Shown: one piece after another, positions 1-32,145 of the stretch
Numbering within the stretch: the stretch's first letter is position 1
Layout of the letters: each line of letters opens with the position of its first letter
Source: Nitrospirae bacterium JdFR-86
GTDB taxonomy: Bacteria > Nitrospirota > Thermodesulfovibrionia > Thermodesulfovibrionales > JdFR-86
Length of the DNA: 64,000 nucleotides
NCBI GenBank assembly: GCA_002011815.1
Contig: MTOV01000017.1
Span: forward strand, 10,640-74,639
Reading direction: 5' to 3'
Translations under genes and position numbers: made by a program
The notes under the pieces: generated by a model
Told to the model about the DNA's origin: nothing
Database searches by the model: none
Seen by the model: only the letters and a program-made list of their open reading frames with translations

Positions 1-1797
1 TTGTATATCAAGTGCTAAACCGGATTGATGAAAACTCGCATATGCACCACCAACTGCTTCATTATGTTGTGGTGGACGCCATGAAGATGATATCTGCAAA
101 CCGTCAGGAATAAGTGCTTCAAGATCAAGAGTAGCTCCTAGCTCAGCAGTATACCGGCCGACATAGTAACCAAAGAAGTCTGGCAGATTATTAGAATTGG
201 CTATAACCTCAGCGCGTAATTGTCTATAGGAGTTATTAATCTGGTTAATCCAATATTGCCATTGGGGGCTAAGCAAAGTAAAGTTGTATATGCTCTGTGA
301 TCCCTTAAGCACGAGGCGTTCATACTCCCTGCGCTCCTCAGGCTGAATCATGCGTAAATCTTCTCGTTCCGGGATAGACATATAAAAATAGCTGCCTGTT
401 GGCTGCTTTATTTTAAAATGGGGTTTGTTACCAACCTGGACATGATCATCGCTGGGGATACCTTTATGTGTTTCCCTCTTCTGGTAATAATAGTCATTAT
501 TGACACTCTTCCAATTCATATGGAAACCAAATTCCTGGCGAATAATATCTGGTTCATCCTGTTCAAGTGTAAAGGACTTTGGATTATCCCCGGCAACTTC
601 AATACGAAGGAGAAGGGGTTCGGTGGTTCTTGGTTGCTTTCTGGCCTGCTTTCTTTCTCTTTTAGTTCTTGGATAAAGGGGGTGGTCAGGACGCAGGTCA
701 CGGTTTAGTATAATCTCGTTCTCACCAGGAGGCCAATCCCCCTGTTTTGAATTTTCCATACCGCCCCCTGAGAGGGTTAAAGTAGCGCTGGTGCCATTGT
801 GGGCAAGATACAGGCGATCCCAAGTGACAAAGGAGAAACCCATATTGATATCATCCGGGTGGGGTAAAAAGTAGCGCCAGCCTCTATCTTCATTGCCGAT
901 TACCAGATATGGTCGCACATCCTCTACAGTTCTTGGTACCTTGCCGACGATGTAGGCTTTTTCATCAGTGCCGATTAGTCCTAATTGCTGAGCTCTGGTT
1001 TTGTCATCATCGGAGAGATACCCACTCAAAACGTAACCTGGATTCATCCAGACGTAATCCGAATAAAAAGGTTGAAATGCAAAACGTCCCCGGATATTTA
1101 AACTAACCTTTACTTCAGGTCCAACCTCTACCAATAATGAACCATCAGGCTTAGCCAGGTCACTATCTGAGTCTACGTACATCTGAACATAAGTCAGTCC
1201 ATACCACCAGAGATCGAACAAATAATCTTGCCAATCCAATTCTCCCAGATTCGTCGGGTTTCCGTCCTGGTATTCTGGAATCGTAATTCCCTGGTTTGAC
1301 AGTGCATCAAGTGTCTCCTGAACATCATCCAGCGCCTTCCGGCTTAGAACTCCCGGATGTCCTCCCCTACGGATTCGTCCTGCTGTATAATGCTGTTGTA
1401 TTGCATTTTTAAGTGTCTGCGCCTGGGTTTGACCAGTCCATGTAAACGAATACCACAAGACAAATGGTTGCTCCCGCTCCACAACATCAGGGCTTATTTG
1501 GTCTGCATCCCTAAATTCTGAATAGCGGACACCAATCCGATGCCCCACAATGCTGCCATTTTCAATAATCGGACGGGCAACCATTTTCCCGGGACCGGGC
1601 ATGAAAACTTTGACTTTCCCTCCAGCATTGGCCTGAACCGTCAGCGTCATCAAAAACGCCTTACGAAACGGCTCACGAATCAGCTCGTTAGACCAGTTCT
1701 GATTCAACGTGTTAAGGTTCTGGATATTAACCATCTCTACATCCTTCTTGATAACAGTCCAATTATCTGGATAGTCCGTCGAGATTGGCAATTTCAT
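1..1797 (-). CDS. Large hypothetical protein, N-terminal 599 codons only (3' end beyond the left window edge); third gene of the giant-ORF operon
   Basis: Absent from the ORF track because it has no stop inside the window. I scanned plus-strand triplets 1-3, 4-6 ... up to 1797 and found no TTA/CTA/TCA, so there are no minus-strand stops. ATG at 1797-1795 is preceded by GAGGAGTAGGTG (Shine-Dalgarno-like) and by an in-frame TAG at 1806-1804. It starts 17 nt after the stop of the upstream giant ORF. No family or motif recognised. Confidence 0.7.
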   Translation of the reverse strand, partial: MKLPISTDYPDNWTVIKKDVEMVNIQNLNTLNQNWSNELIREPFRKAFLMTLTVQANAGGKVKVFMPGPGKMVARPIIENGSIVGHRIGVRYSEFRDADQISPDVVEREQPFVLWYSFTWTGQTQAQTLKNAIQQHYTAGRIRRGGHPGVLSRKALDDVQETLDALSNQGITIPEYQDGNPTNLGELDWQDYLFDLWWYGLTYVQMYVDSDSDLAKPDGSLLVEVGPEVKVSLNIRGRFAFQPFYSDYVWMNPGYVLSGYLSDDDKTRAQQLGLIGTDEKAYIVGKVPRTVEDVRPYLVIGNEDRGWRYFLPHPDDINMGFSFVTWDRLYLAHNGTSATLTLSGGGMENSKQGDWPPGENEIILNRDLRPDHPLYPRTKRERKQARKQPRTTEPLLLRIEVAGDNPKSFTLEQDEPDIIRQEFGFHMNWKSVNNDYYYQKRETHKGIPSDDHVQVGNKPHFKIKQPTGSYFYMSIPEREDLRMIQPEERREYERLVLKGSQSIYNFTLLSPQWQYWINQINNSYRQLRAEVIANSNNLPDFFGYYVGRYTAELGATLDLEALIPDGLQISSSWRPPQHNEAVGGAYASFHQSGLALDIQ

Positions 1798-1814
1798 AGG
1801 CACCTACTCCTCGT

Positions 1815-4800
1815 TTAAGGTTCCTCTGTCTCTTCTTCTTCAATTTCAGGACCAAACAATGGTTTGATCCTCACAAGTAATGAAGGTATTTCATCAGGTG
1901 AATCTTCTACAAAGCGCCTGGTCACGCGGTAATCATAAAAAATTGTCGGATCCACTTCTGCTGTTTCTCCCTGAATTAATCCATTATTCTGCGACCAGAC
2001 AGTAGACGCTTCCCAGGTTTCATTGCCGGGGACGCGCTCAAATATGCTATTGTTTATGCCATCTGATTCCCATTTTATTTCAACAATGTCAGACCAATGC
2101 TGTTCATCTGCGGCCCGACGGCTGAGCTTGTAAATTCCCGGAGTCGGACCCCGCCAGGCCAATCTGTGATATATTGATTCATCTATTTGTTCCCACTCTG
2201 CGAGTATCCACACCGGGGGTTCAAGAAATTTTCTTTTCCTCTGGGGTACAGTAATGGAAAGCTGCGACCAAACCGGCGTTCCATGAACAGTGCGACCTGC
2301 TTGCAGAGAATAAAACCACTCTTCAAGGTCATCCGGTGGTGTATCATCCGGGAGGCGTAGCCGCAAGGGGTCAAACTGAAACTCACGGCTCTGCCCATTC
2401 CCTAACGCATACCGGACTGTAACTTGAACTCCATCACGCCAACGGGGAATCAACAAACGCCGGGCCATATCCAGGTCATAACGGTCTAGATGATTGATTG
2501 CACCTGCTTTCAGTTGACGCGATGTAGAATCCTCGATTTCCTGTGTATCCTGCCAGAGATAAAGACCGGCCAGCCGCCTTTCATTTGCATTAAAATACGG
2601 AAGCCTGATGACGCCATTACGGTACTCAATGGGGTTTGCATTAGCCTCTTCAAGAAATTCCAAAATTTGTTTCTGGCTTGAGTCCGCAATAGCTTCCAAT
2701 TCGATCACCCAACGTGTTCCTTCACTTTCAAACGACCGGAAAGAGTTTGTAACTTCGTCAATGTAACCGTGCTCCATCAAGTCTGGCAGGTCCGGGCGAT
2801 TCATCAGTGTATCCCCTGACAGTTGAGCTAAATGTCGCGGATAGATTCCTTCAAGAGTTGCATCATCAGGTAGCACATCGAGGGTTACAGAACCGTACTG
2901 AACAGTTATGGGCTGATCTCCATCCCCAAAAACGCGCTTCGTACCATCCGCCTGTGTTGCTTCAATCAAAACCGGCAAGCCTTCGCTCCACAGACTCTGC
3001 AAATCTGTACCTGAACTGGAGATTATCACAAACGGAGAAAAGTCAACCGAGGCATCTGCCGAACCGTCTTCAGCCACACCTATAACAGCCTCAAGCGTCA
3101 TATTATCTACATCGAATTCCGGCAGCCGGACGCGCCCATCCCTGACATACAAGGGTTCAGCTTCGGGTATCACATTCCTGGCAATCTGACGGATAAGGTA
3201 GGGCGAAATGGGCTTTTGATCGGCTGACCGGAACAGCCGGAAGCTGTCAACTGTCTCTCTTGATGGCACGCTCCAGCTTATCCAGACCTTACCGTTATCC
3301 CAATAGGTACGAATGCCTTCTGGCGGCATTGGGGCTCTGAGGTCTGGTGGAAGTACAGGGTCAGAAGCAGCTGAAATCGGACCCCGGTTACCAGCAGAAT
3401 CCAACACGCGTACCGCGTAAAAGAAACGAATGCCAGCACTATCCAAAACATCCTCGAATTGGGTTATATCTGCTTTTACATTACCGACCAGGTCAAATTC
3501 TCTCTCGAAAATGTGCTCACCAGTATCTGTGGAAGGGCTGATTAATGCTACAAGCTCTGCATCAGACATTGCAGGCACTGATGAAGGGTCGATTCCAGCA
3601 ACTGGATACTTGGATAAAAACATCTGGATCCGGCGTTCAGAAATTCGGAGTATCTCATAAGCGTAGCCGTCACCTGCAGGGTTCCAGGAAACTCGAACAC
3701 GGCATTTTTGCTCAAGGTCAGGCAGTGATATTAAACTTGCTGCAGGTCGGTCAATTGCAGGAGGCGGCTGTTCAAAAACCCGTGTAACGACTGCCGGGTC
3801 TGAAGCAGCACCTTCTCTACTGCCCTGTTCGACAGCAACAACCCTGAATCCCAGCTGTTTCACAGACTCCGCAAGGGTAGGACCAAGCACCCCGGTCTCT
3901 TCAATTCTCACACTCTGAGGCAAGGCAAGAGTTGCATTGCCGACTTGAGGCGCAGATTGCAGACTGTCATTGCCCGTGCGATTAAGAATGAGCAGTGTAC
4001 CATTCTTATCCGCAGCTAAAATGATATACGAACGCCCGGTTGCATCCCCAAGCACACCTTTAGTTATACCAGCAACAGATGCTCCTGTCTTTTTGCAGAG
4101 TGTGGCAAAGCCCTCAGAGTCAAACTTCAGGCGGAAGGGCTCATTGCCAGTATATATCCCCCAGTCGTAGTCAGGGTCAGATACAATAATAAAAACAACA
4201 TTAGAGCCAGCAGTATGTTCAAGGATTTTGAATTCCTGCCAGGTATTGCCGTGCTTGATTTCAAACTTTACGTTGCTGTTTGGTGCATTGAAAATCCCCA
4301 GGGCGCTTTCAGACAATTCTAAATCAGTTGTAACCTGGACACCGATTTTGCCCTCCTGTCCAATAATTGATGCAATTCGCTGCCTGAGCTCCATAGCGGT
4401 CTGCTGTATTGGATCGAAAGTACCTGAACCTTCGCCTACCGGGCATGGGACAGGGGCTTGCACTAGATTCCCCTCTAAATATTGAGTTCCTGGTGTTGTA
4501 ATTTGCATTGGAATAAGATTCTCGAGTGGAACTTCCAAGAGAAAATGGTCTCCTTGGTCAGATTCAGGTGTCCTGACCATTACTTTAAACCGGTCAACGC
4601 GCGGAAAGAGGTCGCGTAGTTCCTGGGTCCACAGCCAGCTTACGTGATAATTTCCAGGCTCATCGCCGGAAGGTGGTTGCCAGAAGGCGGTCACTTGTAC
4701 CGGGGCAGCAGGCAGGGGAAAGTGCTCAGCACTGATTGTAACGCTCTTTTCTTCTGAAACCGGTGCCTGACGGCCGAAAATATCCTGACCAACGACTTTA

Positions 4801-6158
4801 TAATAAAAAGTTCCTAACTCTGACACCGTGTCCCAGTATATTCGTGTCCCAGGAGAGTATGGGGTCGGCATGCCATCGCCTAAATGGTTGTTATTCCGGT
4901 ACACTTCAAAAAACGGTGCACGCCAGCGGTCAATAGACTTTGAGTCAAAACCGAGATGTAGCTCTACCTGCACACGTTGTCCACGAACCCTTTCATCAGT
5001 CCCAAATGGCGCTGGAAAGGTCCTATCTGTTACCGAAATATTAGTGATATGCGGGCTAATGAGCGGCCATTCTGTATCTGCACTGAGACCATAATCAGCT
5101 GCGCTTGCCACAAGACCATTGCCCCAGTCTGCGACAATAAGATAATCAAATCGCTCATAGTCCTTTCTGCCTTCAAGATTGTCCTGATAATAAAATCCAA
5201 AAAATTTCGCCAAAGCAGGATGAACAGTCAGCATCGCAATCAACTCAAGCGGACGCATGCGCACTCCTTCCCCCTCTGAAACGTTCCACCGGCGCCCTCT
5301 GAAAAATCGTTCGAGCACATCTGTGGAAACAGTAAGTAAGTCGGCATAAGCATTCCGCTCATGGAGATCACGAAGGAGTTCGATATAAGCCTCTCTGAAT
5401 TCGTCATCAGTCATTCCGGTATCGATTCCATGATTATGTAAAAGGTCGAGTGCTTCGCTGACCATGCCAGGGTTCGGGAGGTGAAAATGTGCTATTGGCT
5501 GGCCCCAATTGTCGAGTGTCCCTTCAGGCCATTGCAGGATATCCGGTGCAATTGGCGTAAAAGTCACAGAAGAGAGACTGCTGATAGAAACGCTAAGATG
5601 CAAACGGTCAACTACCGGCATAAGTCGAACAGCCTTTCCCTCCCCTGCTGTAAACTCACCGAGGATAGTCAAGCGGTCCTGGTCCCAACCCGTAATATTA
5701 ATTGTTCTTTTGTTTCCCCTGAAGACCAGCTCCACCTCTCGCACGGGCTCATCAAATTGCAGTGTATAAAATAAAACCGAAAAACGGTTTTTAAGTTCAT
5801 CTAACTTTTTTCGCGCTCCTCTAAACCCTAGAAAAGCTAGAGTAGTGTAAAGAACAATTAGAATGCGAAACAGAAAGTATCGCAACCTTCTATATCTGCC
5901 GAGAGCAAGCTCATTTCGCTGGAGATTGCGATATTGTTCATAAGGACGCCGATAGAGATAGAAGCCTTGTGTTGGATAGTTCCACTTTGTGTCGATATTC
6001 CAGCGCAGATGGACAGAATGCGATGTAAACTCTGGATCATTCCTGGCCATGTATAATCCTTCTGCGCGCCCGCCGATTCCAATGATTCCAACAATCGAGC
6101 GACTTAATCGTCGAGGTATTCGGTCATTCATTATACGAAACAACTCTACCCAGCTCAT
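1815..6158 (-). CDS. Giant hypothetical protein (1447 aa) with several FN3/Ig-like beta-sandwich modules and one predicted transmembrane helix
   Basis: ORF track. The ATG overlaps the upstream stop by 4 nt (ATGA, 6155-6158). Recurrent FN3-type strand signatures: VHLRWNI..GFYLYRR; FYYKVVGQDIFGRQAPVS; VRVSWNP..FFYAVRVLDSAGNRGPIS; VWISWSVP..FRLFRS. Hydrophobic stretch YFLFRILIVLYTTLAFLGF at aa 94-112. Acidic tail EIEEEETEEP. Alternative start at Met37 (ATG 6050, GAAGGA 7 nt upstream). Confidence 0.8.
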   Translation of the reverse strand: MSWVELFRIMNDRIPRRLSRSIVGIIGIGGRAEGLYMARNDPEFTSHSVHLRWNIDTKWNYPTQGFYLYRRPYEQYRNLQRNELALGRYRRLRYFLFRILIVLYTTLAFLGFRGARKKLDELKNRFSVLFYTLQFDEPVREVELVFRGNKRTINITGWDQDRLTILGEFTAGEGKAVRLMPVVDRLHLSVSISSLSSVTFTPIAPDILQWPEGTLDNWGQPIAHFHLPNPGMVSEALDLLHNHGIDTGMTDDEFREAYIELLRDLHERNAYADLLTVSTDVLERFFRGRRWNVSEGEGVRMRPLELIAMLTVHPALAKFFGFYYQDNLEGRKDYERFDYLIVADWGNGLVASAADYGLSADTEWPLISPHITNISVTDRTFPAPFGTDERVRGQRVQVELHLGFDSKSIDRWRAPFFEVYRNNNHLGDGMPTPYSPGTRIYWDTVSELGTFYYKVVGQDIFGRQAPVSEEKSVTISAEHFPLPAAPVQVTAFWQPPSGDEPGNYHVSWLWTQELRDLFPRVDRFKVMVRTPESDQGDHFLLEVPLENLIPMQITTPGTQYLEGNLVQAPVPCPVGEGSGTFDPIQQTAMELRQRIASIIGQEGKIGVQVTTDLELSESALGIFNAPNSNVKFEIKHGNTWQEFKILEHTAGSNVVFIIVSDPDYDWGIYTGNEPFRLKFDSEGFATLCKKTGASVAGITKGVLGDATGRSYIILAADKNGTLLILNRTGNDSLQSAPQVGNATLALPQSVRIEETGVLGPTLAESVKQLGFRVVAVEQGSREGAASDPAVVTRVFEQPPPAIDRPAASLISLPDLEQKCRVRVSWNPAGDGYAYEILRISERRIQMFLSKYPVAGIDPSSVPAMSDAELVALISPSTDTGEHIFEREFDLVGNVKADITQFEDVLDSAGIRFFYAVRVLDSAGNRGPISAASDPVLPPDLRAPMPPEGIRTYWDNGKVWISWSVPSRETVDSFRLFRSADQKPISPYLIRQIARNVIPEAEPLYVRDGRVRLPEFDVDNMTLEAVIGVAEDGSADASVDFSPFVIISSSGTDLQSLWSEGLPVLIEATQADGTKRVFGDGDQPITVQYGSVTLDVLPDDATLEGIYPRHLAQLSGDTLMNRPDLPDLMEHGYIDEVTNSFRSFESEGTRWVIELEAIADSSQKQILEFLEEANANPIEYRNGVIRLPYFNANERRLAGLYLWQDTQEIEDSTSRQLKAGAINHLDRYDLDMARRLLIPRWRDGVQVTVRYALGNGQSREFQFDPLRLRLPDDTPPDDLEEWFYSLQAGRTVHGTPVWSQLSITVPQRKRKFLEPPVWILAEWEQIDESIYHRLAWRGPTPGIYKLSRRAADEQHWSDIVEIKWESDGINNSIFERVPGNETWEASTVWSQNNGLIQGETAEVDPTIFYDYRVTRRFVEDSPDEIPSLLVRIKPLFGPEIEEEETEEP

Positions 6159-9100
6159 GATTGTTCTCCTGTAACCTCTACCGAAATAATCAGACTTTTT
6201 TGAACCACATCAGGTTCACCCTGAAGAGCGCCTGGCCGGCTCCAGATTACCTTTAAAGCCGCTATAGCTGATGCTGAACGCGTGACCCATGCCCACCGGG
6301 TATGGTCAGACCGCGAGAGGACACTGCCGGTATTTAGCGTATTTCCGTCTGCATCCAGCCAGTAGATTTGAAAACCCTGACGGGGCAGTGGTTCCGGGAG
6401 TTCCAGAACTACTACATCAAGATTACGATCCGAATCGCGAACGATGTATGCAACGACATTAGCAGGCAGCGGCGTACTGACCAAGGGTAAAGCAGCCGCA
6501 TCATCAAGACTGGTCAATGTGGAAAAATCAGCATTGCCGAACATGCTTACATCAATCACTGGGATTTGTCGATTGATTGTGTCAAACATCGCTTCCCACG
6601 ATGCAAATTTAGAACTGCGAATACGCGTCTCATACAGTATCTGCCCTTGTGCCTGTGTTCCGGATTTACGGCGGATCTGAACTCGATGAACCACTCCAGG
6701 CAACAACCAGCCAATGGGGTTTTCTTCCTCTGAACCTGCTGCTGAAGCAGGCTGGCTTACCAGCACATCGTCCTTTGGCAAGGCTGAAACATCAATAGGA
6801 TTAGACAGTGACCGATTGACTGCTTCAAGGAATAAAGCTGTATTTTCCAGATCCACGCGATCGCGGGCCTTCATCCATTCAGTCACCCGACCTTCAATCT
6901 CGTTACCTGCCGGGTCTAAAAAGACGACTTCCAGTTCTTCTTCTGCCACCAGCTCATACATTTTTCGGATATAATTCACATTAAAAAAGAAATAAACTGG
7001 GGCACTGCGATAGACAGGAATCAATGTTCCATCTGCATAGGCAGTATGGAACCCTTCTGGTGCTGAAACCTGTAACCTGGCGGTCTCTCCTTCAGGAAGC
7101 GAATGTTCCTGCAGTAGTGGCCATGGAGGACGAATGTAGGGCTCCAGATTATCTGGTGTCCCGCGCGTCGTAAAGGTAACAGAATGCTGCTCGCTTGCAC
7201 TTCCACTGCTTGCACCGCTATTGTCGGGTGTGCTGGCTTTATCAACCTGCACGGTCAGCCGGTAGGTCGTATTGGGTTCAAAAACAAACTCTTCATCCTC
7301 CCAGTAAAACAAACCAGCCAGCTGCCTTATAAGCTTATCACCAGCCTGACTATTTATATTGGCAATCATTTCCATTTGTGCATCTTCATACGAGACATAA
7401 CAGATTTTTTTAAGGTTTATTGTGTGTCCTACCAGATAAAGCCTGTCCACGGCAAAAGTCTTTTCAGGCACAAAATCTGTGATGGAATCACGGTAGCCCG
7501 CTAATATCCGTTCTGCCTTCGCTTCAAGAGTTTTAATGATTACCGGGTAAGACCACCGTATTTCGAGGAAAATTGTCTGAAGTTTACCTTTCGGACTTTC
7601 TTTGAACTGTCCCTTCTTATCTGAATAATCAAAATCGATTCCGAATGCAGATATGACATTTAATCCTTCAAACAATGGAAAAGATGTCTCCGAGCCGATA
7701 GGTATTTCAACAGCCACTGCTGGCTGCCAGACAAGAAAGGAAACACCGTCACGTTCAAAACAGTGGGGCAACACCTCTGGTTGTTCGATATGCTCTCCGA
7801 AAGTGATGCAGCTGGTCTGGGCGACACACCCGTCGTTTCCTGGTCTCACGTCTGTAGTCTGGGCAACCTCCCTGACCACGCCGGTGCCAAGCAGCCACCG
7901 GCTATACACAAAGCTCGATTTAGAAAATAACACGATGGTTCCATCAGTAGCATCACGACGCATTTTCGGGTTAACCTGCCATACACCATAAACCGGAAGT
8001 GCTTGTCCATCGTTTTCTCTGACCAGAGAGATATTGGAGATTTTGTATTCGAATATATATTCACCGACTTTGTGGGCATAATTTAGCCCTGCTTCGAGCC
8101 CCCCGATACCTGCATTGCTCTCATTGATTGCACGATGCGCAAGAGACAGACATAACTTGGCATCCACTGGTATACCTTCGATATGGCTGCCATTGCGAAA
8201 ATCCCATGTCTTCTGGCTTGTTGCAGAAAGAGCCTGAACCTGGGTCAGAACAGGCGGGAACGCTGGTGGCAGGTCTTCCTCATACAGTTGTTCTATCTCG
8301 ATTTCAGGGTCAGGCAGCGGCCAGGGGAGATTTAACTTGAGTGCAAAATAAAGCCTGAGCCACCATGGAGTGGGAGCCTTTGCAGCAATTGCAGCATTCA
8401 CGGAAAAATCGAATCCAATGCCGAATGCTCTGGCAATCAGCCGACCCCAAAGCTCCAAACTTGCAGTAAGCTGGCTTGGGTCGAAGCTCAATTGACCATC
8501 GAAGACAGCACAGGCATCGAGTCCGACTTTAACCGGTCCGATTTTTTTGGTTGGTATCTTATAGCCGACTGATCCTCCAAAATCAATACCTGGGGGATGA
8601 ATCTGAAAATAAGCATCTCCCCGCAGGAATTTTTTAAGGACCTCGGCTTGTATTCGCTTGCTCTTTGGTTCGCGGCGTCCCAGATAAATATGCCAGTTGG
8701 GATTTCTTTTCAGCTCACTAAAAACATCTAATATACCGTGTGCGAACAGGATGCCTTCAACAAATTCGTATTGAGCTTCGATGAATAGCTGGATGCTTCG
8801 GCTATCAGAACGTAAATCGAGAACCATAAGGGCTCGCAATGGAGGATTATCGCTCAGGGCTGTCCGCGATGTCAGAAACGCAGCACGCCCTTCAATTAGA
8901 ATGAGCGGACCGGGCAGAGCCAATACCAGTAGAGAACGCGTAAGAACCGTAAAGCCGTCGGTGGTACACAGTGTAACACCAGCGCCTAGGGCAAAACCCA
9001 GATACTTGTCCGTCCATTTTGAACTGTGCGTTACGCCTGAGACAGGTGGCGCCTTGTACCAGTCATAATACCAACTTTTGTCTTCTCCGCCTTCAAAATT

Positions 9101-10807
9101 CGGATAAGTGTTAAGCCCAAGAAGTCCCTGGACGCCAAAAAGACCAAGACCACTTTGTCCGAGTGGTATGGGAGTCGGGAGCTCAACACCTAAAGCCAGA
9201 TATAAGAATGGATACGGCGGCGTAGCGGTATTAATTCCAGCCAGCAATGATGCATCAAGCCCAAAGCCAAGTTGAGGAAGAGCCAGTAGCATATCACCAC
9301 TGAACCCTCTCTTGCTTTCTTCCTTGATGATACGTCCACCGCCTTTAATGATGACGGTCTCTGCAATATCTGCTTCAAGGTATATTCCATCCAGTGACAG
9401 CGTTGGAGTGACAGGGGCTGACGACCCAAATGTTGCAGGATCAAACGAGAGCTTCAGACCAATGAGAGTCGCACCGGGCAAACCATCCACAAGTTTAACC
9501 TTCCCGTCCAGCCCTATCCAGAATTCATCGCCAAACCCAATCCCTACTTTATAGAGAGAAACTGAAAAACCGATTAAGTCTGCTGCCAGTTCCGGTTGAA
9601 AAACAATCCACCCTGCATCAAGAGTAACTTTTCCGTCAGTACTGACCTTCAAACCTTCAACCCGAATGGTAAAATCCGGTATTGATAAGTCACCGGATGG
9701 TAACGCGGGTTTCAAATCGCCTGTAAATGTAAGTTCGGCACGGTCCTCTTTTATCGTGATTCCCAGTGCATCAACCAAAAGCCTGGCAACTCCTTCCTTT
9801 TCCAACTCTAGTGCGCCGCCTTCTGCTGCTTCCATGCCAAGCTTCAAGGCTTGATTTGCATCGAAACCAATGGTAAGGACAGGCCGTCCTTTGTCGAAGA
9901 AAGGCAGTGCAGCCTCTGCACGAAGCTCGAAGCCGACCGGAAGATTTTCTTCGAAGCGCACACTTGCCAACCGTATACCGATTGGAATACCAGCAAGGTC
10001 GGCACTGCCTGCACCAACGAACCGCCCTTCAGCTTCGTCCCAGGAAGGTTTAAGTTCAGCTTTTACACTCCCTGAAAAACCATTCCGACCAATCATTGCG
10101 TTTTCCAGGCTTAGTCTGACAGGGTCATCGCCCCCCAGGTCTGGCGGCAGAATTAGTGTTGCTTTTTCGAGCAATAACCGGAACGTCTTTAAATCACCAT
10201 CGGACTCTAGTTTTAAAGTTCCTGGCTCCAGCTTCATCCCCGTGTCTGCGATGTCCCATGGTGTATTTTTAGCCAAAAGACGAAGTCCTTCGTCACCAAG
10301 AGGTGCCAGCTCGACTCTGCCATTAAAATCAGCAGTTAGCCGACCAATACCGGAAATTTCAATTTCAGCCGGCAGTACTGAATCAGAATCGCCATCCTCC
10401 TGTCTTCCTTTAAGAAGGGAGCCCGGCATCCTGACAACTAACGTTGGGCCCTCAAGAATCAAACTGGCATTTTCTGCAATATTCAGAGATGCGGTACAAA
10501 AATCCGCGAAAAGGACCTCGAATTCCTCTAGCCCGGGGAATTCAATGCGAGGTTCATAACCAGGCAATGGACCGAATCTTGCGTGAAGACATATTCCACC
10601 GGCAATCCTGTCTATACGGTAATCAGAAATACCTACCATATCCCAGAATGCAGGCTCGGTGGTTATCGAAGGGTCTGTTTCTGCAAGCAATTCAGTCAAG
10701 AAGTCAGGCATTGCGACACCTAACTCTTGAAAGCAATTGCTTAACTCTGTTTTCGCAAAGGCTCTAAGTGAGATAATATTATTTTCTTCTACTTGCTCTT
10801 CCCACAT
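6155..10807 (-). CDS. Giant hypothetical protein (1550 aa), first gene of the giant-ORF operon
   Basis: ORF track. This is the first ATG after an in-frame TAA three codons upstream. There is no Shine-Dalgarno (upstream reads CCTCCTTTAATGGTCA), so Met33 (ATG 10711, preceded by AGGTG) is a possible alternative start. No signal peptide. Gly/Leu/Pro-rich hydrophobic core (GLGLFGVQGLLGLN, LVLALPGPLILIEG). No family recognised. Confidence 0.8.
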   Translation of the reverse strand: MWEEQVEENNIISLRAFAKTELSNCFQELGVAMPDFLTELLAETDPSITTEPAFWDMVGISDYRIDRIAGGICLHARFGPLPGYEPRIEFPGLEEFEVLFADFCTASLNIAENASLILEGPTLVVRMPGSLLKGRQEDGDSDSVLPAEIEISGIGRLTADFNGRVELAPLGDEGLRLLAKNTPWDIADTGMKLEPGTLKLESDGDLKTFRLLLEKATLILPPDLGGDDPVRLSLENAMIGRNGFSGSVKAELKPSWDEAEGRFVGAGSADLAGIPIGIRLASVRFEENLPVGFELRAEAALPFFDKGRPVLTIGFDANQALKLGMEAAEGGALELEKEGVARLLVDALGITIKEDRAELTFTGDLKPALPSGDLSIPDFTIRVEGLKVSTDGKVTLDAGWIVFQPELAADLIGFSVSLYKVGIGFGDEFWIGLDGKVKLVDGLPGATLIGLKLSFDPATFGSSAPVTPTLSLDGIYLEADIAETVIIKGGGRIIKEESKRGFSGDMLLALPQLGFGLDASLLAGINTATPPYPFLYLALGVELPTPIPLGQSGLGLFGVQGLLGLNTYPNFEGGEDKSWYYDWYKAPPVSGVTHSSKWTDKYLGFALGAGVTLCTTDGFTVLTRSLLVLALPGPLILIEGRAAFLTSRTALSDNPPLRALMVLDLRSDSRSIQLFIEAQYEFVEGILFAHGILDVFSELKRNPNWHIYLGRREPKSKRIQAEVLKKFLRGDAYFQIHPPGIDFGGSVGYKIPTKKIGPVKVGLDACAVFDGQLSFDPSQLTASLELWGRLIARAFGIGFDFSVNAAIAAKAPTPWWLRLYFALKLNLPWPLPDPEIEIEQLYEEDLPPAFPPVLTQVQALSATSQKTWDFRNGSHIEGIPVDAKLCLSLAHRAINESNAGIGGLEAGLNYAHKVGEYIFEYKISNISLVRENDGQALPVYGVWQVNPKMRRDATDGTIVLFSKSSFVYSRWLLGTGVVREVAQTTDVRPGNDGCVAQTSCITFGEHIEQPEVLPHCFERDGVSFLVWQPAVAVEIPIGSETSFPLFEGLNVISAFGIDFDYSDKKGQFKESPKGKLQTIFLEIRWSYPVIIKTLEAKAERILAGYRDSITDFVPEKTFAVDRLYLVGHTINLKKICYVSYEDAQMEMIANINSQAGDKLIRQLAGLFYWEDEEFVFEPNTTYRLTVQVDKASTPDNSGASSGSASEQHSVTFTTRGTPDNLEPYIRPPWPLLQEHSLPEGETARLQVSAPEGFHTAYADGTLIPVYRSAPVYFFFNVNYIRKMYELVAEEELEVVFLDPAGNEIEGRVTEWMKARDRVDLENTALFLEAVNRSLSNPIDVSALPKDDVLVSQPASAAGSEEENPIGWLLPGVVHRVQIRRKSGTQAQGQILYETRIRSSKFASWEAMFDTINRQIPVIDVSMFGNADFSTLTSLDDAAALPLVSTPLPANVVAYIVRDSDRNLDVVVLELPEPLPRQGFQIYWLDADGNTLNTGSVLSRSDHTRWAWVTRSASAIAALKVIWSRPGALQGEPDVVQKSLIISVEVTGEQS

Positions 10808-10911
10808 TGACCATTAAAGGAGGGCTCATGAAAAAAATATACCGCGCCATCGTAACCTGCCTGGAAATGATTCTGTTTCAAAAATGTCGAGTACGGCTTA
10901 TATCGGACAGG

Positions 10912-10940
10912 AGTATACCACCAACCCGTGGTAGTGTCAA
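10912..10940 (-). promoter_or_regulatory. Near-consensus sigma70-type promoter for the giant-ORF operon
   Basis: Minus strand reads TTGACA (10940-10935), a 17-nt spacer, then TATACT (10917-10912). This predicts a leader of roughly 100 nt before the ATG at 10807. Confidence 0.5.
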
Positions 10941-11054: not shown

Positions 11055-12119
11055 TCAGGCACATTCTTTCAATACCATCCCTGCAATGGCTTCCAGTGGA
11101 ACTACCTTATCAACAGCACCCAGCTTGATTGCCTCTTTAGGCATGCCAAAAACCACGCAGGAGTCTTCATCCTGCGCAATAGTGCTTGCACCTGTCTCTT
11201 TCATTTCCAGCATACCTCTTGCGCCATCGTCCCCCATTCCAGTCATTATCACACCAACGGCATTCCTGCCGGCATAACGCGCTGCCGAACGAAACAGCAC
11301 ATCCACCGACGGACGTTGACGACAAACAAGAGGACCATCCTTTATCTCTACATAATAACGAGCACCACTGCGCTTAAGCAGTGTGTGACGGTTGCCAGGC
11401 GCTATCAATGCACGACCCCGGATTACACTGTCGCCGTCCTCCGCCTCTTTGACAGACACACGGCAAAGACTATCAAGCCTTCTTGCAAACGCACTTGTAA
11501 ACCGCTCAGGCATGTGCTGCACTATGACCATTCCCGGAGCATCAAGCGGCAAAGCCTCAAGAAAAACACGAAGAGCCTCTGTGCCACCTGTAGATGCACC
11601 AACTACAACAACTTTTTCCGTGGTCTGCACCATCGCCTTCCTGGGCTTCGCTATCACCGCATCAGCGGTCAGCTTCGGCGATACTTTCAGAATATCCGGT
11701 TGAATGCGCCTGAGCTTCGCTACAGAAGCCGCTTTCACAGCATCGCATATGCGCACCTTCGACTCCTCTAAAAACTGCTTTGCACCCAAACGCGGCTTCT
11801 GAATAATCTCAACCGCGCCGTATTCCAGAGCCTTAAGCGCAGTCTCCGAGCCCCTCTCCGTCAGGCTCGAACATATAACCACAGGGATAGGATGCTGCGT
11901 CATAATCTTATGCAAAAAAGTAATGCCGTCCATCCTCGGCATCTCAACATCAAGCATGATAACGTCAGGGACTTCATCCCGCATCTTCTCAGCGGCAATG
12001 AACGGGTCTGCAGCCGTTGCCATCACCTCGATGCCAGCATCAGATGAAAGAATCTCTGCAAGTGTCTGGCGTGCGACCGCAGAGTCATCAACAACAAGCA
12101 CCTTTACCTTTCCCTTCAT
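11055..12119 (-). CDS. cheB: Chemotaxis response regulator protein-glutamate methylesterase CheB
   Basis: N-terminal receiver ([27 protein letters not shown]). C-terminal methylesterase with Ser/His/Asp motifs ([21 protein letters not shown]). Start set to ATG 12119, which has GAGGAG 6 nt upstream. The track start 12155 is a GTG. Confidence 0.9.
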
Positions 12120-12161
12120 CAAAAACTCCTCATGGAAGACTCCATTTTCTATCACCCGCCT

Positions 12162-12671
12162 TTAGTCATTTATCCTCTTAAGGCGCTTTAAAAAAACCTC
12201 GCCTGTCTGCGTGTTGAAAAATATCTTTCTGCCAGCTACACCACCAACATCAGAGGTGAGCAAATGGAGCCCCTCACTCCTGATAACACTAAGAGCCGCC
12301 TTTATGTTTTGCTTGCCGATATTAGCGCTTTTCCTGTCAACGCCTTTCAGGGCGAATACATCAGCGCCGCCAAATACCTTAACCTCTATCTCATTGCGCT
12401 TACTGCCAGACATAATAAATTCCTCAACCATACTCCTGACTGAACAGCCCACATACTTAAACTCTTCAGTGCAATTATCATCACATTTCTTCTTGTCCCT
12501 ACACCTGGGAAGAAGCCCATGACAGATTGCACCGATTCCAAGACGCCGGTTAAACATGGTAACCGATATACAGGAGCCGAGCACCGTAGTCACTATAGTT
12601 GGCCTCCTCGCAATATACAGTTCACCCGGCTTGAGATAAACAACCGGAAGTTTTGCCTCTGACAAATTCAT
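12162..12671 (-). CDS. cheD: Chemoreceptor glutamine deamidase CheD
   Basis: CheD signature LGSCISVTMF...GAICHGLLP. The ATG overlaps the cheR stop by 4 nt (ATGA). Confidence 0.85.
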   Translation of the reverse strand: MNLSEAKLPVVYLKPGELYIARRPTIVTTVLGSCISVTMFNRRLGIGAICHGLLPRCRDKKKCDDNCTEEFKYVGCSVRSMVEEFIMSGSKRNEIEVKVFGGADVFALKGVDRKSANIGKQNIKAALSVIRSEGLHLLTSDVGGVAGRKIFFNTQTGEVFLKRLKRIND

Positions 12672-13561
12672 AACGATTTCCTGTAAACCGTGGTAAATAC
12701 AGGAACCAAAGGCACATTCAAACCACTTAATGTCTCGGAATGCCCCATAAAGATATATCCGCCGTCACGCAAATGCCTGCAAAGACGGTTAAGTATTATT
12801 TCCTGTGTCGGTCTGTCAAAATAAATGATGACATTGCGGCAGAATATGATATCCATCTGCTCACGGATTCCAAAGTTCTTATCCATGAAGTTCAGTCTTT
12901 TGAACTCCACCCGTTTTCTAAGCGCAGGGGCAACCCTTACAAGTCCTTTACTCCTGTCCTTGCTCCTTAAAAGATATTTCCTTTTCAATGCCAGGGGAAT
13001 CGGCTCAACCCTGTCTTCGCTGTAAATTCCAAGTCTTGCTTCTTCAAGTGCCTTTGTGGAAATGTCTGTGGCAAGAATTGAATACTGAAACTTCCTGTAG
13101 TTTTCGCCAAACTCGCTCAAGACCATTGCCAGAGTGTAAGGCTCTTCCCCGGTCGAACACCCTGCACTCCATAACATAAGCCTCCTGCTAATGCCTGCAC
13201 CTAAACTGCCGACCAGCTCCGGCAAAACCGTCTGCACCAGATAATCAAAATGCTTAGACTCGCGGAAGAAATCAGTCTTGTTCGTGGTGACCACATCGAT
13301 CATATGGACTATCTCGTTTTTCATGCCTTCAGGACTGAACACGTAATCGCAATACTCCCTGAAAGACTTCATCTTAAGGACATTAAGTCTTTTTCTGATG
13401 CGTGCCTCAAGCATCGACTTCTTAGTCCGCGGCAACTTTATACCGCATTCACTATGAATAAACTTGCTCAGACGCCGGAAGTCCCTGTCAGACATCGCTG
13501 TGTGCACATCCTTATTCACACGAACGTCATCCATAAATCTATTCCTTCCAGTTTGATGCAT
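12668..13561 (-). CDS. cheR: Chemotaxis protein methyltransferase CheR
   Basis: N-terminal CheR helical domain (FRRLSKFIHSECGIKL). SAM-binding fold (LWSAGCSTGEEPYTLAM, IFCRNVIIYFD). Start uncertain: Met10 (ATG 13534) has the better Shine-Dalgarno (GGAAGGA). Confidence 0.85.
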   Translation of the reverse strand: MHQTGRNRFMDDVRVNKDVHTAMSDRDFRRLSKFIHSECGIKLPRTKKSMLEARIRKRLNVLKMKSFREYCDYVFSPEGMKNEIVHMIDVVTTNKTDFFRESKHFDYLVQTVLPELVGSLGAGISRRLMLWSAGCSTGEEPYTLAMVLSEFGENYRKFQYSILATDISTKALEEARLGIYSEDRVEPIPLALKRKYLLRSKDRSKGLVRVAPALRKRVEFKRLNFMDKNFGIREQMDIIFCRNVIIYFDRPTQEIILNRLCRHLRDGGYIFMGHSETLSGLNVPLVPVFTTVYRKSL

Positions 13562-13588
13562 TGATGTCTGCTGTGTCTTAGTGTCAGG

Positions 13589-14101
13589 TCATGCCGCTGT
13601 CTCCTCCAGCTGGACGTCCTCAGCAGTGTCACCTGCAATGGCAAGCTCTTCTGAGGAAAACACCTTGTCTATGTCAAGGATTATGATGAAATGGTCATCA
13701 CGTTTTCCCATCCCTTTGATGAATTCAGTCTTCAGGCGAGTGCCTATTCTTGGCGGAGGCTCTATCTGTTCTGGCTCAAGCTCAAACACTTCCTGCACGG
13801 AATCCGCAAGTGCACCAAGCACTGTGACCTCGTCGTCAAGGGTCACCTCAACGATGATTATGCAGGTATCTACAGTCTGCTCTGTCCTGGACATTCCCAG
13901 CTTGAGCCTCATGTCCACTACCGGCACGACTCCGCCTCTCAGATTAATAACCCCGCGCATAAAATCCGGAGTGCGTGGCACTTTCGTTATAGTCGTGAAA
14001 TCAAGCACCTCACGAACTTTCGATATGTCCAGCGCAAAGACTTCCTCTGCAAGTTTGAATGTAAGGTATTGTCTTGTCTCGGTTATACCTGCCACACTCA
14101 T
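13589..14101 (-). CDS. cheW: Chemotaxis coupling protein CheW
   Basis: Single CheW-like domain (QYLTFKLAEEVFALDISKVREV, INLRGGVVPVVDMR). AAGGAG Shine-Dalgarno upstream. Confidence 0.85.
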   Translation of the reverse strand: MSVAGITETRQYLTFKLAEEVFALDISKVREVLDFTTITKVPRTPDFMRGVINLRGGVVPVVDMRLKLGMSRTEQTVDTCIIIVEVTLDDEVTVLGALADSVQEVFELEPEQIEPPPRIGTRLKTEFIKGMGKRDDHFIIILDIDKVFSSEELAIAGDTAEDVQLEETAA

Positions 14102-14121
14102 ACAGGCTTCTCCTTTCCTGT

Positions 14122-15810
14122 TTAAAACTTTTCAAACTCGCTGTCGAGCTTATCACCATCGCCATCACTCATATCCAGTGCAATTCCAGCAGGCTTCCCT
14201 GCCACAGATTTAGCTGAAACCGCTACGGCGGCTTTGCCGTCTTCTTTTTTCAGATGGGCTATCTTTGTCCTGTTGAGTTTTGCAGAAGCAGTCGCCCCTG
14301 CCGGCTTGGCGGCTTTGCCGTTTTCAGCATCGTCTGTCTTGAAAAATGCAATAGCACTCTGCAGTTGCTCTGCCTGTGAGGAAAGCTCCTGAGCAGTGGA
14401 TGCCATCTCCTCAGCCGCACTTGCATTCTGCTGTGTCACCTGATCAAGCTGTTGTATTGCCTTATTAATCTGCTCTGCACCTGCATATTGTTCATTGCTT
14501 GCAGCACTTATCTCCTGGACAAGCTCTGCTGTCTTCTGGATATCAGGCACTATCTTTGCGAGCATCTCGCCTGCCCTTTCAGCCACTGCAACACTTGAAG
14601 AGGAAAGCTGTCTGATTTCACCAGCCGCTGTCTGACTCCGCTCGGCAAGCTTGCGGACTTCAGAGGCAACAACCGCAAAGCCCTTTCCGTGCTCTCCTGC
14701 CCTTGCCGCCTCTATCGCTGCATTCAACGCCAAAAGATTCGTCTGACGCGCTATCTCCTCAATAATGGATATCTTCCCTGCAATCTCCTTCATTGCAGCG
14801 ACGGTCTCGGCTACTGCCTTTCCGCCTTCTTTTGCATCTTCAGCAGCCTTTATGGCAATCTTTTCTGTCTGCTGGGCATTGTCTGAATTCTGCCTTATGT
14901 TGACTACCATCTCCTCCATCGCAGAGGCAGCCTCTTCTGTAGCAGCAGCCTGCTCAGTAGCCCCCTGAGACATCTGCTCAGAAGTCGCACTTAATTGCTG
15001 GCTTTCGGATGCAACATTGTCTGCCGTTAATTTTGCGTCGTTTACAACATCACGAAGCTTTTCAAGCATCAAGGCAATAGACTGTCCCAGAATGTCCTTA
15101 TCTGAAAGAATCTTTACACTGGCACGCAGGTCTCCTTTTGCAATCTGCTCTGCAACCATCGCCGTATCCTGCAGACTCTTGACAACCTTGTTCACACTGT
15201 CTATGATCCTGGCAATCCCATCATCACGCTCAGCAACCAGATGTATTGAGAGGTCTCCAAGGCTGAGCCTTTCAAGATTCTCCACAAGCATTGCCACCTG
15301 TTTTTCGAGGTACGCTCTTTGCTCATCAGCCTCTTTCTGCAGTCTTTTAACCTCTGAAATATCTATAATCACTTCTATACCGCCATAGACATTGCCTTCA
15401 TCGTCAATAAGTGGTGAACATGCAGCCTGTATAGGAAATTTTTTGCCGTACCTTGTCTCCGCCACTGTCTCTCCGATAATCACTTCACGGCTGCGCATGC
15501 AGTTCTTGAGCGTACAGTTTGCCGTGCCGCAAAGCGGGGTCTTTGACAGGTCAGCACATGTCATCTTCCCGACGACCTCATCACGGCTATAACCCATGGC
15601 TTTCAACGCAGCATCGTTGATAAAGGTAATCACCAGGTCCCTATCAACCGTAAACATAGGTGCAGCAATAGAGGCGACAATATTCTCACACTGCCTGCGC
15701 TGTGCCTGTACCTCGCTGAGCTGTCTCTCAAGCTCTTTAATACGGCTGTGCAGCTTTCCGTTACCCTTGTTTCGTCTGGAAGACTTAGATGTTTTGGCAG
15801 ACTTAGCCAT
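14122..15810 (-). CDS. Soluble methyl-accepting chemotaxis protein with a PAS sensor carrying a four-Cys cluster
   Basis: No transmembrane segment. PAS-like region at about aa 45-160 containing C85, C94, C99 and C104. HAMP-like linker. MA signalling tip [46 protein letters not shown] Shine-Dalgarno. Confidence 0.85.
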
Positions 15811-15890
15811 TTTCCACCCTCCTGCTTTAAGGTTTACATTTTCTCACTTCTACCCCAGTCCTTTCTGTTACTGGAAGCATTTCTCCCCTC

Positions 15891-18011: not shown

Positions 18012-18014
18012 CTT

Positions 18015-18350
18015 CTACCCCTCTGTCCACAAACAGCCTTCACCACCACGGACACAGCCTGCATGACGGTAATAACCAGCTTCCTTTACAGCATTTTTAA
18101 ACGCCTCCGGATAAGTTTCTGCCAGCGTAAAACGCTTATTCGACATCACAGCCGTCCGGTGCGCTGAACACATCAGCTGAAGACAGGTAAGGTCCAGAGC
18201 ATTGACCCCTTTAAGATCAAAAATCACGTTATCAGCCTCACCAAGTAACCTTAATAAAACCTCCTTGAGTTCAGCCGCACGCTCTATGGTTAAATCACCA
18301 GTAGCTTTCAACACCCGTGCATTACCTGACTGTTCAATCTTAAAATTCAT
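18015..18350 (-). CDS. STAS-domain protein (anti-sigma-factor-antagonist fold) embedded in the che operon
   Basis: SpoIIAA-like pattern (ARVLKATGDLTIERAAELKEVLL, VIFDLKGVNALDLTCLQLM). C-terminal tail with two Cys (GCVRGGEGC). Lies 3 nt upstream of the cheA start. Confidence 0.65.
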   Translation of the reverse strand: MNFKIEQSGNARVLKATGDLTIERAAELKEVLLRLLGEADNVIFDLKGVNALDLTCLQLMCSAHRTAVMSNKRFTLAETYPEAFKNAVKEAGYYRHAGCVRGGEGCLWTEG

Positions 18351-18403
18351 CGCATACCCCCCATATCACTGGAAAATGCCCTTCACAGGGCTCGACTCCA
18401 GAC

Positions 18404-18769
18404 TCACCTTACAAACTTCTTCACAACACCTATCAGCTGCTCCGGGGTAAACGGCTTTACTATCCAGCCACTGGCACCTGCACGTCTGCCTTCCTGCTTC
18501 TTCGTCTCCTGAGACTCTGTAGTCAGCATCACTATAGGAGTAAACTTATATGCAGGTTTCAAACGCAGCTGCTTTATAAGTTCAATTCCGTCCATCTTCG
18601 GCATGTTAAGATCGGTTATCACCATCTCTACCCTTTTGCCGTCAACCCTTGCCAGTGCATCCTCGCCATCGACCGCGGCAATCACTTCAAAGCCTGCATC
18701 CTGCAATGCAAAAGACACAAGCTGTCTCATAGAAGATGAATCATCCACTATCAACACTGTCTTTGTCAT
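18404..18769 (-). CDS. cheY: CheY-like single-domain response regulator
   Basis: Receiver motifs VLIVDDSSSMRQ, MVITDLNMPKMDG, and K in WIVKPF. GGGAGGTG Shine-Dalgarno. Confidence 0.85.
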   Translation of the reverse strand: MTKTVLIVDDSSSMRQLVSFALQDAGFEVIAAVDGEDALARVDGKRVEMVITDLNMPKMDGIELIKQLRLKPAYKFTPIVMLTTESQETKKQEGRRAGASGWIVKPFTPEQLIGVVKKFVR

Positions 18770-18844
18770 ACCTCACCTCCCGAAAAAACACGTCTTTACA
18801 GGAAATCAGTCCTATAAAGACTCTTTAACGCGGTTATACTCCCC

Positions 18845-19051
18845 CTACTCTTCATGCAAATACTTAAAATACTCGCACTTCAGACAGTTGCCGAATCTCT
18901 CAAGAAAAGTGCAGTTTGGTGTAGCACCGACACACAGTGTTCCGGTTATAACCCAGCAATACCTGCCCAAACCCTTCTGTACAACAGGACAACCTTTTGT
19001 CTTGTCCATTCCGCACTTGTTGAACTCCCAGCAATTAAGCTTGTCTTTCAT
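18845..19051 (-). CDS. Small (68 aa) Cys-rich protein with two CW dipeptide motifs
   Basis: Eight Cys (C7, C13, C21, C32, C40, C47, C56, C59). The motifs NCWEFNKCG...CP and YCWVITGTLC resemble what I recall being annotated as a two-CW domain; I cannot verify this. The ORF sits between the MCP and cheY with short gaps and a Shine-Dalgarno-like AAAGGGA. Confidence 0.55.
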   Translation of the reverse strand: MKDKLNCWEFNKCGMDKTKGCPVVQKGLGRYCWVITGTLCVGATPNCTFLERFGNCLKCEYFKYLHEE

Positions 19052-19069
19052 CTATCCCTTTGAACCTGC

Positions 19070-20681: not shown

Positions 20682-20707
20682 CCCCGCCACCTTCAAAACC
20701 CAATAAA

Positions 20708-22336: not shown

Positions 22337-22341
22337 TGCCT

Positions 22342-32139: not shown

Positions 32140-32145
32140 AACCTT

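Follow-up and report, generated by a model that had tools for sequence, protein, structure and literature searches.

What kind of system is encoded by three giant, tightly packed genes that at first sight belong to no family? The question is raised by the left end of a 64,000-nucleotide (nt) stretch of the genome of Nitrospirae bacterium JdFR-86 (assembly GCA_002011815.1, contig MTOV01000017.1, forward-strand positions 10,640 to 74,639; hereafter the window), where three consecutive minus-strand open reading frames (ORFs), which we call P1, P2, and P3, lie next to a chemosensory (che) operon. We find that this trio is a self-contained, horizontally mobile module and not the output of the neighboring che operon. 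P1, a DUF6603-type beta-meander protein, and P2, an array of FN3/Ig-like domains, are an obligate conserved pair of giant non-enzymatic beta-rich proteins. A third protein always goes with the pair but is not the same in every lineage; here it ends in a predicted zinc peptidase domain.

Three genuine and tightly coupled genes

The ORF list together with a check of the reading frames showed that all three genes are genuine (Table 1). A reading made from the sequence alone, without database searches, had described three consecutive giant ORFs, the third found by hand as a frame of 599 codons running from 1797 to 1, and these coordinates proved exact. Two longer public contigs with identical genes give the full length of P3 as 752 amino acids (aa). 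The close packing claimed by the same reading is likewise present in the sequence: the P1 stop and P2 start overlap as ATGA at 6155-6158 with AGGAG 8 nt upstream, and a 17-nt gap (1798-1814) separates the P2 stop from the P3 start, which is preceded by GGAG..GGTG, a GGAG-type ribosome-binding site. One gene caller began P2 at Met37, but the long, overlapping start is right because residues 1-36, including the motif IGLxGIGGRA, are conserved in homologues. The near-consensus promoter was also found. It lies about 105 nt upstream of the P1 start and is a consensus match only, in a scan where chance alone would give 1.4 weaker matches per 800 bp.

Table 1 Features of the P1-P2-P3 trio in the window
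Feature	Position	Strand	Description
P1	6155..10807	-	1550 aa; giant all-beta protein, divergent DUF6603 member (ORF list, AF2 model, homologues)
P1 conserved core, ~aa 200-870	8198..10210	-	Common to all P1-like proteins; includes Gly/Leu/Pro-rich hydrophobic stretch
P2	1815..6158	-	1447 aa; FN3/Ig-like beta-sandwich array with helical inserts (ORF list, AF2, Foldseek)
P2 family-defining N-terminal region, aa 47-542	4533..6020	-	HLRW...GF.LYRR motif; common to P2-like partners of distant DUF6603 genes
P2 FN3 domain, ~aa 895-990	3189..3476	-	FN3-repeat proteins recruited by profile search; faint fibronectin PDB matches
P3, first 599 of 752 aa	1..1797	-	Frame open to base 1; exits the window's left edge
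Predicted LAS/M15 domain start, P3 aa 566-599	1..102	-	SSWRPPQHNE...SFHQSGLALD; zinc ligands H590, D597
Sigma-70-type promoter-like site	10912..10940	-	TTGACA-17-TATACT; 11/12 consensus matches, TG before the -10 hexamer

A conserved pair with an exchangeable third gene

Close relatives of the trio are very rare. A search of 5.8 billion clusters returned only eight non-self matches for P1, one for P2, and three for P3, and a scan of 185,579 GTDB species representatives, using patterns drawn from the five closest homologues, found no close P1 relative. The identical P1-P2-P3 order, with similar gene sizes, was found in four other contexts with differing neighbors and GC contents of 40-70% (69-71% in loci L005 and L006). 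Uma2 and DDE transposase genes flank the trio in L002 (70% GC), whereas a phosphonate ABC transporter and housekeeping genes follow it in L005. Across hosts of very different GC, at least one archaeon among them, each module has preserved more than 3700 codons without disruption. In L004 (40% GC) the P2 gene is in two pieces, ORFs of 554 aa and 862 aa at L004:4952-9256, which reflects either decay through a frameshift or, the assembly (GCA_024449665.1) being very fragmented, a mistake in assembly. The L004, L005, and L006 contigs start 100-360 bp upstream of P1, so their upstream neighbors are out of view. Independent assemblies break within about 100-200 bp of the module ends, upstream of P1 in L005:1-222 and L006:1-109 and, in a Logan contig (L001), 97 bp after P3; repeats or insertion sequence (IS) elements may flank the module.

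More distant relatives show the same design. A metagenome scan gave 26 further loci with P1 relatives of 28-34% identity, about 20 metagenome loci being long enough to show both P2-like and P1-like genes. Essentially all loci of sufficient length have, tightly packed on one strand, a gene for a P2-like protein of 1240-1760 aa, one or two variable genes (385-896 aa), and a gene for a P1-like protein of 1275-2319 aa. About 35 more distant loci, from bacteria and one archaeon, retain the P1-like/P2-like pair while the third gene varies, and the hosts span diderm bacteria, actinobacteria, and one haloarchaeon. The order on pBRH02 of Mycetohabitans rhizoxinica and on a plasmid of M. endofungorum is P2-like, PLD, P1-like, and Ca. 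Paracaedibacter symbiosus also conforms to this packed design. The M. rhizoxinica operon (RBRH_RS15915/15910/16630, the PLD gene being RBRH_03371) resembles the trio in having three genes, a P2-like, a third, and a P1-like gene, but differs in that order and in encoding a PLD protein where the present trio encodes a predicted LAS peptidase. On pHM300 of Haloferax mediterranei the order is P1-like, P2-like, and then a 1142-aa Baseplate_J protein (L122:1348-14461, HFX_RS16600-16610); a halocin H4 gene lies about 10 kb downstream, and the annotation of the surroundings includes neither sheath nor tube genes.

At least five classes of third gene, none related to another, can be told apart (PLD, PMP/beta-helix, two of no known family, and LAS peptidase), and Baseplate_J comes in addition. 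The Haloferax third gene encodes a genuine Baseplate_J protein (PF04865, E = 2e-12), and one third gene gave a weak OmpA-like peptidoglycan-binding match below the Pfam cut-off. Neither phmmer nor hhalign found an adaptor domain common to the third-gene classes, and hhalign of P3 against the Haloferax Baseplate_J protein gave a probability of 0.2, that is, no similarity. The distant loci lie among IS elements/transposases, integrases, and toxin-antitoxin genes, with an SNF2/PLD helicase at one of them; those on the Mycetohabitans plasmids have toxin-antitoxin genes, an integrase, and IS elements as neighbors.

Two observations concern the evolution of the giant proteins themselves. In five loci (L099, L109, L110, L112, and L115) a domain of about 150 aa is common to the C-terminal part of the P1-like protein (aa ~1170-1440) and the N-terminal part of the P2-like protein (aa ~165-340), with 26-35% identity, a sign that in this sublineage the two giant proteins may have exchanged the domain or come to share it through duplication. 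In Rhizocola hellebori a distant DUF6603 operon (L008:7484-23054) has five large genes, encoding a PLD protein of 832 aa, a DUF6603 protein of 1116 aa, and then proteins of 904, 1495, and 818 aa, the last three of which gave no match to the P2 and P3 profiles. On the evidence of this operon the DUF6603 superfamily may have further architectures.

P3 carries a predicted LAS/M15 zinc peptidase domain

Peptidases of the LAS/M15 class, which includes phage endolysins, MepK, and VanX/VanY, cut peptidoglycan peptides that contain D-amino acids. The sequence-only reading had reported no catalytic motif in any of the three proteins, but P3 carries the motifs of this class, the first at the extreme left edge of the window and the second past it. 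Full-length P3 scored 29.1 bits (E = 1.2e-6) on Pfam Peptidase_M15_3, above the cut-off of 23.2 bits, as did the fragment within the window (25.7 bits), and P3 also matched the endolysin PHROG phrog_894. The LAS signature is complete: W573-R574, H578-N-E580, S588-x-H590-x-x-G-x-A-x-D597, and H745-x-H747, the last reading H745-V-H747 and lying outside the window. Four homologues, although overall identity is only 30-50%, keep every one of these residues unchanged. By these sequence criteria P3 carries a LAS/M15 zinc peptidase domain with an intact predicted active site.

P3 resembles the LAS peptidases in its SxHxxGxAxD and HxH motifs and in an upstream W-R...H-N-E...GG block. It differs from them in that the Peptidase_M15_3 alignment is partial (profile positions 42-79 of 108), in an insert of about 145 aa, partly acidic, between its two zinc motifs, in the 560-aa region that precedes the domain, and in having neither a signal peptide nor a PDB match. 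This N-terminal region is conserved among the homologues and matches no family or PDB entry. PDB sequence and profile searches with P3, with the P3 family alignment, or with the C-terminal domain alone gave nothing significant. P3 carries a known enzyme domain in a new setting; the enzymes in the Pfam description of Peptidase_M15_3 are of the MepK/YcbK and phage endolysin types.

P1 is a divergent DUF6603 protein

Direct Pfam, NCBIfam, PHROGs, and PADLOC scans of P1-P3 gave only an M15_3 match and a weak DUF6603 match beside the endolysin PHROG of P3. The earlier statement that none of the three proteins belongs to a recognizable family was nevertheless too strong: it holds for P2, which matches no Pfam family, but P1 is tied to DUF6603 through its homologues and P3 to Peptidase_M15_3. 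The direct match of P1 to DUF6603 (PF20248; aa 415-570) scored 16.4 bits (E = 0.0035), under the 27-bit gathering cut-off. Its homologue P0004 (29% identity, E = 7e-74) passes that cut-off with 48.1 bits, another (P0007) carries a precomputed PF20248 match, and the M. endofungorum plasmid homologue, annotated as DUF6603, matches the P1 profile at 1e-116 (Mycetohabitans plasmid homologues at 1e-115). Alignments of P1 with proteins that are annotated or score as DUF6603 extend over about 650-800 aa, and hidden Markov model and phmmer alignments with distant relatives cover roughly aa 180-950, the invariant residues being present in the core. On these alignments P1 is a divergent member of DUF6603, its membership being transitive through homologues that pass the cut-off. 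Membership gives no mechanism, because the family has no known function. No paper in the searched literature contains the term DUF6603, and the only one naming genes of the module (as RBRH locus tags) does so in a single sentence of a 2011 genome paper (PMC3102044).

The AlphaFold2 (AF2) model of P1 aa 1-1200, built on an alignment of nine sequences, had a mean predicted local distance difference test score (pLDDT) of 62.8 and was almost wholly beta, with long antiparallel hairpins of 10-18 residues at aa 190-860. Foldseek against the PDB returned LptD, SlpA, ApoB100, and pilus ushers (FimD) with E-values down to 7e-7, at template-modeling (TM) scores of 0.10-0.18 and root-mean-square deviations of about 30 Å. 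An LptD/SlpA/usher fold was rejected for P1, given TM-scores of at most 0.18; the pattern of matches is that of a large beta-meander and is not a fold assignment. A Foldseek search of the P1 model against the viral structure library BFVD returned nothing beyond generic beta-sheet matches, and no toxin domains were found in the long C-terminal extensions of P1-like proteins.

P2 is an FN3/Ig-array protein

The P2 sequence gave no match in Pfam, NCBIfam, PHROG, PADLOC, or PDB; in particular, Pfam fn3 is not matched directly. An exhaustive profile search of 1.84 billion representatives gave 2061 matches. Nearly all of the best 150 of these 2061 are FN3-repeat proteins recruited through aa ~895-990 (E down to 1e-71), one of which (P0025) was confirmed as an fn3 array by Pfam. 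Among the same best 150 are about 12 true family matches; two such proteins, P0128 and P0145, align to P2 aa 47-542, and the true family matches have no Pfam domain themselves. In the AF2 model of aa 1-1170 (pLDDT 72.6, predicted TM-score 0.51) P2 is a chain of beta-sandwiches with helical inserts, whose Foldseek neighbors are the FN3/Ig tandems of titin, gp130, contactins, and TEP1, with lambda gpJ at rank 47.

FN3-like sandwiches, which had been suspected in P2 from its sequence, are supported by profile recruitment, the AF2 model, and Foldseek alike. P2 is, as judged from these profile and model data, a new family with FN3 domains. Two other traits that had been pointed out are real in this copy but are not family features: the single hydrophobic, transmembrane-like helix (aa 92-113) is deleted in a homologue, and the acidic C-terminal tail occurs here alone. 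FN3/Ig arrays in prokaryotes are mostly found in extracellular proteins or phage tail proteins.

The trio lacks export signals and matches no described system

A motif scan of P1-P3 found no Walker A, HExxH, RTX, or YD-repeat signature, and neither the family scans nor the motif scan found an NTPase, nuclease, nucleotide-signaling, or nucleic-acid-binding domain in P1 or P2. The absence of a P-loop or other catalytic motif had been noted beforehand and is borne out for P1 and P2. So is that of RHS/YD and RTX repeats, there being 0-3 YD dipeptides in P1-P3 without repeats and no GGxGxD, and P1 has no detectable signal peptide, as had been said. Indeed, no signal peptide was found in P1-P3 or in any family member, nor any lipobox or conserved transmembrane segment. 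Neither the single proteins nor the family alignments, used as queries in sequence and profile searches of the PDB, gave anything significant.

These results bear on a reading in which the module builds part of the envelope or surface of the cell that makes it, for instance a large adhesin, an S-layer-like structure, or a sheath, with P3 remodeling the cell's own peptidoglycan for its insertion. The FN3/Ig arrays of P2, the peptidoglycan-type peptidase domain of P3, the weak OmpA-like match of one third gene, and the nearest structural neighbors of P1, which are giant outer-membrane and S-layer beta-barrel proteins (LptD, SlpA, FimD), would all suit such a role. However, the family lacks the export features just listed, the barrel TM-scores reach only 0.10-0.18, the hosts (diderms, actinobacteria, and a haloarchaeon) have unrelated envelopes, and the module sits on mobile elements and not among envelope-biogenesis genes. 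We regard a surface component of the producer as distinctly improbable. A test of the outer-membrane beta-barrel assignment (LptD, ushers, SlpA) was negative on both counts, signal peptide and global fold match. Nor were features of RTX proteins or giant type I secretion system adhesins found: there is no GGxGxD, no cadherin or BIg Pfam match, and no adjacent ABC or membrane fusion protein genes.

The toxin complex (Tc, or ABC) toxins share several traits with the module. They too comprise three large proteins encoded in one operon without signal peptides, combine a big scaffold with an exchangeable enzymatic payload, and are known from symbionts and mobile elements, M. rhizoxinica itself having tc clusters in addition to the module. 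They differ in that their variability lies in a C-terminal hypervariable region, whereas in the module it lies in a whole separate gene. P1-P3 have no RHS/YD repeats and no TcA/TcB/SpvB Pfam domains, and no Tc structure was among the Foldseek matches of P1 and P2.

Phage and extracellular contractile injection system (eCIS) baseplates (T4 gp6/gp7, Afp11/Afp12, Baseplate_J) are also alike in being built from large beta-rich proteins that are encoded by adjacent genes and lack signal peptides. They often carry envelope-degrading enzymes, and the third gene of one archaeal relative is a Baseplate_J gene. FN3 arrays, beta-helix proteins, and M15 lysins are common parts of phage tails, and phage structural proteins have no signal peptides. 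The trio could therefore be read as the remnant of a domesticated or satellite-borne phage tail tip or baseplate, in which P1 and P2 would be highly diverged host-recognition or wedge proteins and P3 a tail-associated lysin, and a mobile element or an undescribed tail-like particle would use P1-P3 for envelope penetration. Besides the Haloferax Baseplate_J gene and the absence of signal peptides, the endolysin PHROG match of P3 and the appearance of lambda gpJ among the structural neighbors of P2 speak for this. Against it, none of the loci examined has a neighboring gene for a sheath, tube, spike, tape measure, capsid, or terminase. P1-P3 contain no Baseplate_J or other baseplate domain by Pfam, NCBIfam, or PHROG, and P1 and P2 match no PHROG at all. 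Searches for viral copies were also negative: none of 50,697 phage genomes had a tblastn match to P1 or P3, and two pattern scans of IMG/VR based on alignments of P1 and of P3 found no viral contig. No baseplate structure was among the top Foldseek matches of P1, and P3 is unlike the Baseplate_J protein. A phage remnant is in our view improbable. The eCIS/baseplate candidates that had been proposed for comparison gained no support from these tests on P1-P3, the sole and indirect pointer being the Baseplate_J third gene of the archaeal relative.

Foldseek and sequence searches, family scans, and the baseplate, Tc, and adhesin comparisons thus found no match to a characterized system, as the sequence-only reading had anticipated. 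As a system the module matches no described kind; what it does can be proposed only in the light of sequence and structural models.

The neighboring che operon and the origin of the trio

Upstream of the trio lies a CheA-MCP-CheW-CheR-CheD-CheB cluster, of which cheB is the nearest gene and is co-oriented with P1. Terminator prediction gave none in the 247-bp spacer between cheB and P1 and none after P3; because no terminator separates cheB and P1, read-through from one into the other is possible. These facts would suit the idea that the trio is an output or accessory of the che operon. The trio of L002, however, has no che genes, and none lie beside the distant modules, the upstream side of L004-L006 being out of view. 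The trio also has its own strong promoter-like site, and its codon usage is unlike that of the che genes: the GC content at third codon positions (GC3) is 0.42-0.43 for the trio against 0.48-0.53 for the che genes, contrary to the claim that the two share an atypical codon usage. The che-output reading was rejected on synteny and codon usage; it is largely refuted and barely credible.

The codon-usage distance of the trio is high for such long genes, and the trio looks acquired because its codon usage is distinct from that of the host genes. The tyrosyl-tRNA synthetase encoded in the window has its best identity (76-78%) to metagenome-assembled genomes of Thermodesulfovibrionales/Nitrospirota. 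Extension of the contig to the left, which had been recommended, has brought the end of P3 and its downstream neighbors into view. On a 167-kb contig (L091:12325-21529) P3 is followed by genes for an EEP-family protein (333 aa) and a 265-aa protein without a Pfam match. Further on, on the opposite strand, are an AAA_15/AAA_21 ATPase (618 aa), DUF4238, a GIY-YIG protein, and DUF6884, and beyond these, on the same strand as the trio, a MazE/PrlF-PIN toxin-antitoxin pair. The region downstream of P3 is variable and defense-island-like.

What the module may do

The suggestion that the trio builds a large structural assembly rather than a set of enzymes is reasonable for a coupled unit of giant proteins in which P1 and P2 have no catalytic motif. 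We tentatively favor, as a possibility short of a probability, a protein-only assembly that acts on a cell envelope and carries an exchangeable enzyme. P1 and P2 would assemble into a large protein scaffold, in which the sandwich domains of P2 might bind a surface and the long amphipathic beta-sheet of P1 might form a structural or membrane-contacting body. This scaffold would carry the exchangeable enzyme or position it against a cell envelope. In this lineage P3 would cut peptidoglycan stem peptides; in others a PLD-type phospholipase/nuclease, a beta-helix protein, or a Baseplate_J protein would take the enzyme's place. The module would be made in the cytoplasm without signal peptides and released by lysis or another route, following a logic like that of a phage tail tip or baseplate or of a Tc-type toxin complex, without detectable common ancestry. 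An envelope-directed assembly is favored because of the recognizable third genes and of the FN3 arrays, given where such arrays mostly occur in prokaryotes. This proposal draws on the sequences, the models, and analogy.

Several points weigh against it. No secretion signal, holin, spanin, or dedicated exporter was found in any locus, so the route to the envelope is unexplained. No conserved immunity-like gene follows P3, and the module was absent from the phage genomes and from both IMG/VR pattern scans. P1 has no real fold match, and with a pLDDT of 62.8 its model is no more than moderate. Cytoplasmic action is possible for a LAS enzyme, VanX being an example. Two further points favor the main rival: many PLD domains are nucleases, and the neighborhoods resemble defense islands.

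That rival is intracellular defense against phages or plasmids. P1 and P2 would sense an invader, for example by binding a phage structural protein, and would set free or switch on a variable effector, with death or arrest of the cell as the outcome. The effector would be a PLD nuclease in most lineages and here a LAS peptidase that destroys cytoplasmic wall precursors containing D-Ala-D-Ala, in the manner of VanX. The architecture, a conserved core with an exchangeable effector, speaks for such a system, as do the patchy, cross-phylum distribution, the lack of signal peptides throughout the family, and the ability of LAS and PLD enzymes to act in the cytoplasm. The variable and mobile neighborhoods fit as well, both here (AAA_15/AAA_21, DUF4238, GIY-YIG, PIN-MazE) and elsewhere (integrases and the SNF2/PLD helicase, and the toxin-antitoxin genes and IS elements of Mycetohabitans). 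However, PADLOC-DB v2 gave zero families at E <= 1 for all three proteins, and P1 and P2 have none of the NTPase, nuclease, nucleotide-signaling, or nucleic-acid-binding domains that are common in known defense systems. A sensor made of more than 3000 aa of FN3/Ig and beta-meander would be out of the ordinary, and the beta-helix/PMP and Baseplate_J third genes encode structural proteins rather than effectors. We consider defense unlikely and retain the envelope-directed assembly as the preferred reading.

If the module is an envelope-attacking or payload-carrying assembly, it would be a new architecture beside contractile injection systems (CIS), Tc toxins, and secretion systems; if it is a defense system, it would be one without an NTPase core. 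It is rather doubtful, though conceivable, that bacteria and archaea share an unrecognized protein-only machine, without evolutionary ties to CIS, Tc toxins, or secretion systems, in which a scaffold brings interchangeable enzymes to bear on the envelope of a target cell, or else a new giant-beta-protein sensor-effector system of defense. The module is rare yet phylogenetically broad and wholly uncharacterized. The question is directly testable, since relatives occur in the culturable hosts M. rhizoxinica HKI 454 (pBRH02) and H. mediterranei ATCC 33500 (pHM300), the latter being genetically tractable.

Other features of the window and of the searches

A search of plasmids with P2 and P3 returned nothing, and an Rfam scan of the window gave no match. 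The chemosensory cluster occupies window positions 11055-25011 (minus strand) and comprises CheA, a PAS-containing MCP, CheW, CheR, CheD, and CheB; upstream of the cluster are genes for a second MCP, a PAS/GAF histidine kinase, and a sigma-54 response regulator. The annotated part of the window showed no flagellar genes. Around 32-38 kb (31800-38500) gene orientation and GC/AT skew switch, genes to the left being on the minus strand and those to the right on the plus strand, and the cumulative GC skew flattens over the same 32-38 kb. A long run of plus-strand genes follows at 38.5-51 kb, beginning at 38585-42758 with genes for a 400-aa protein without a Pfam match, a 624-aa TPR+PDZ protein, and a FecR-domain protein. 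GC content falls to 0.37 at 56-58 kb.

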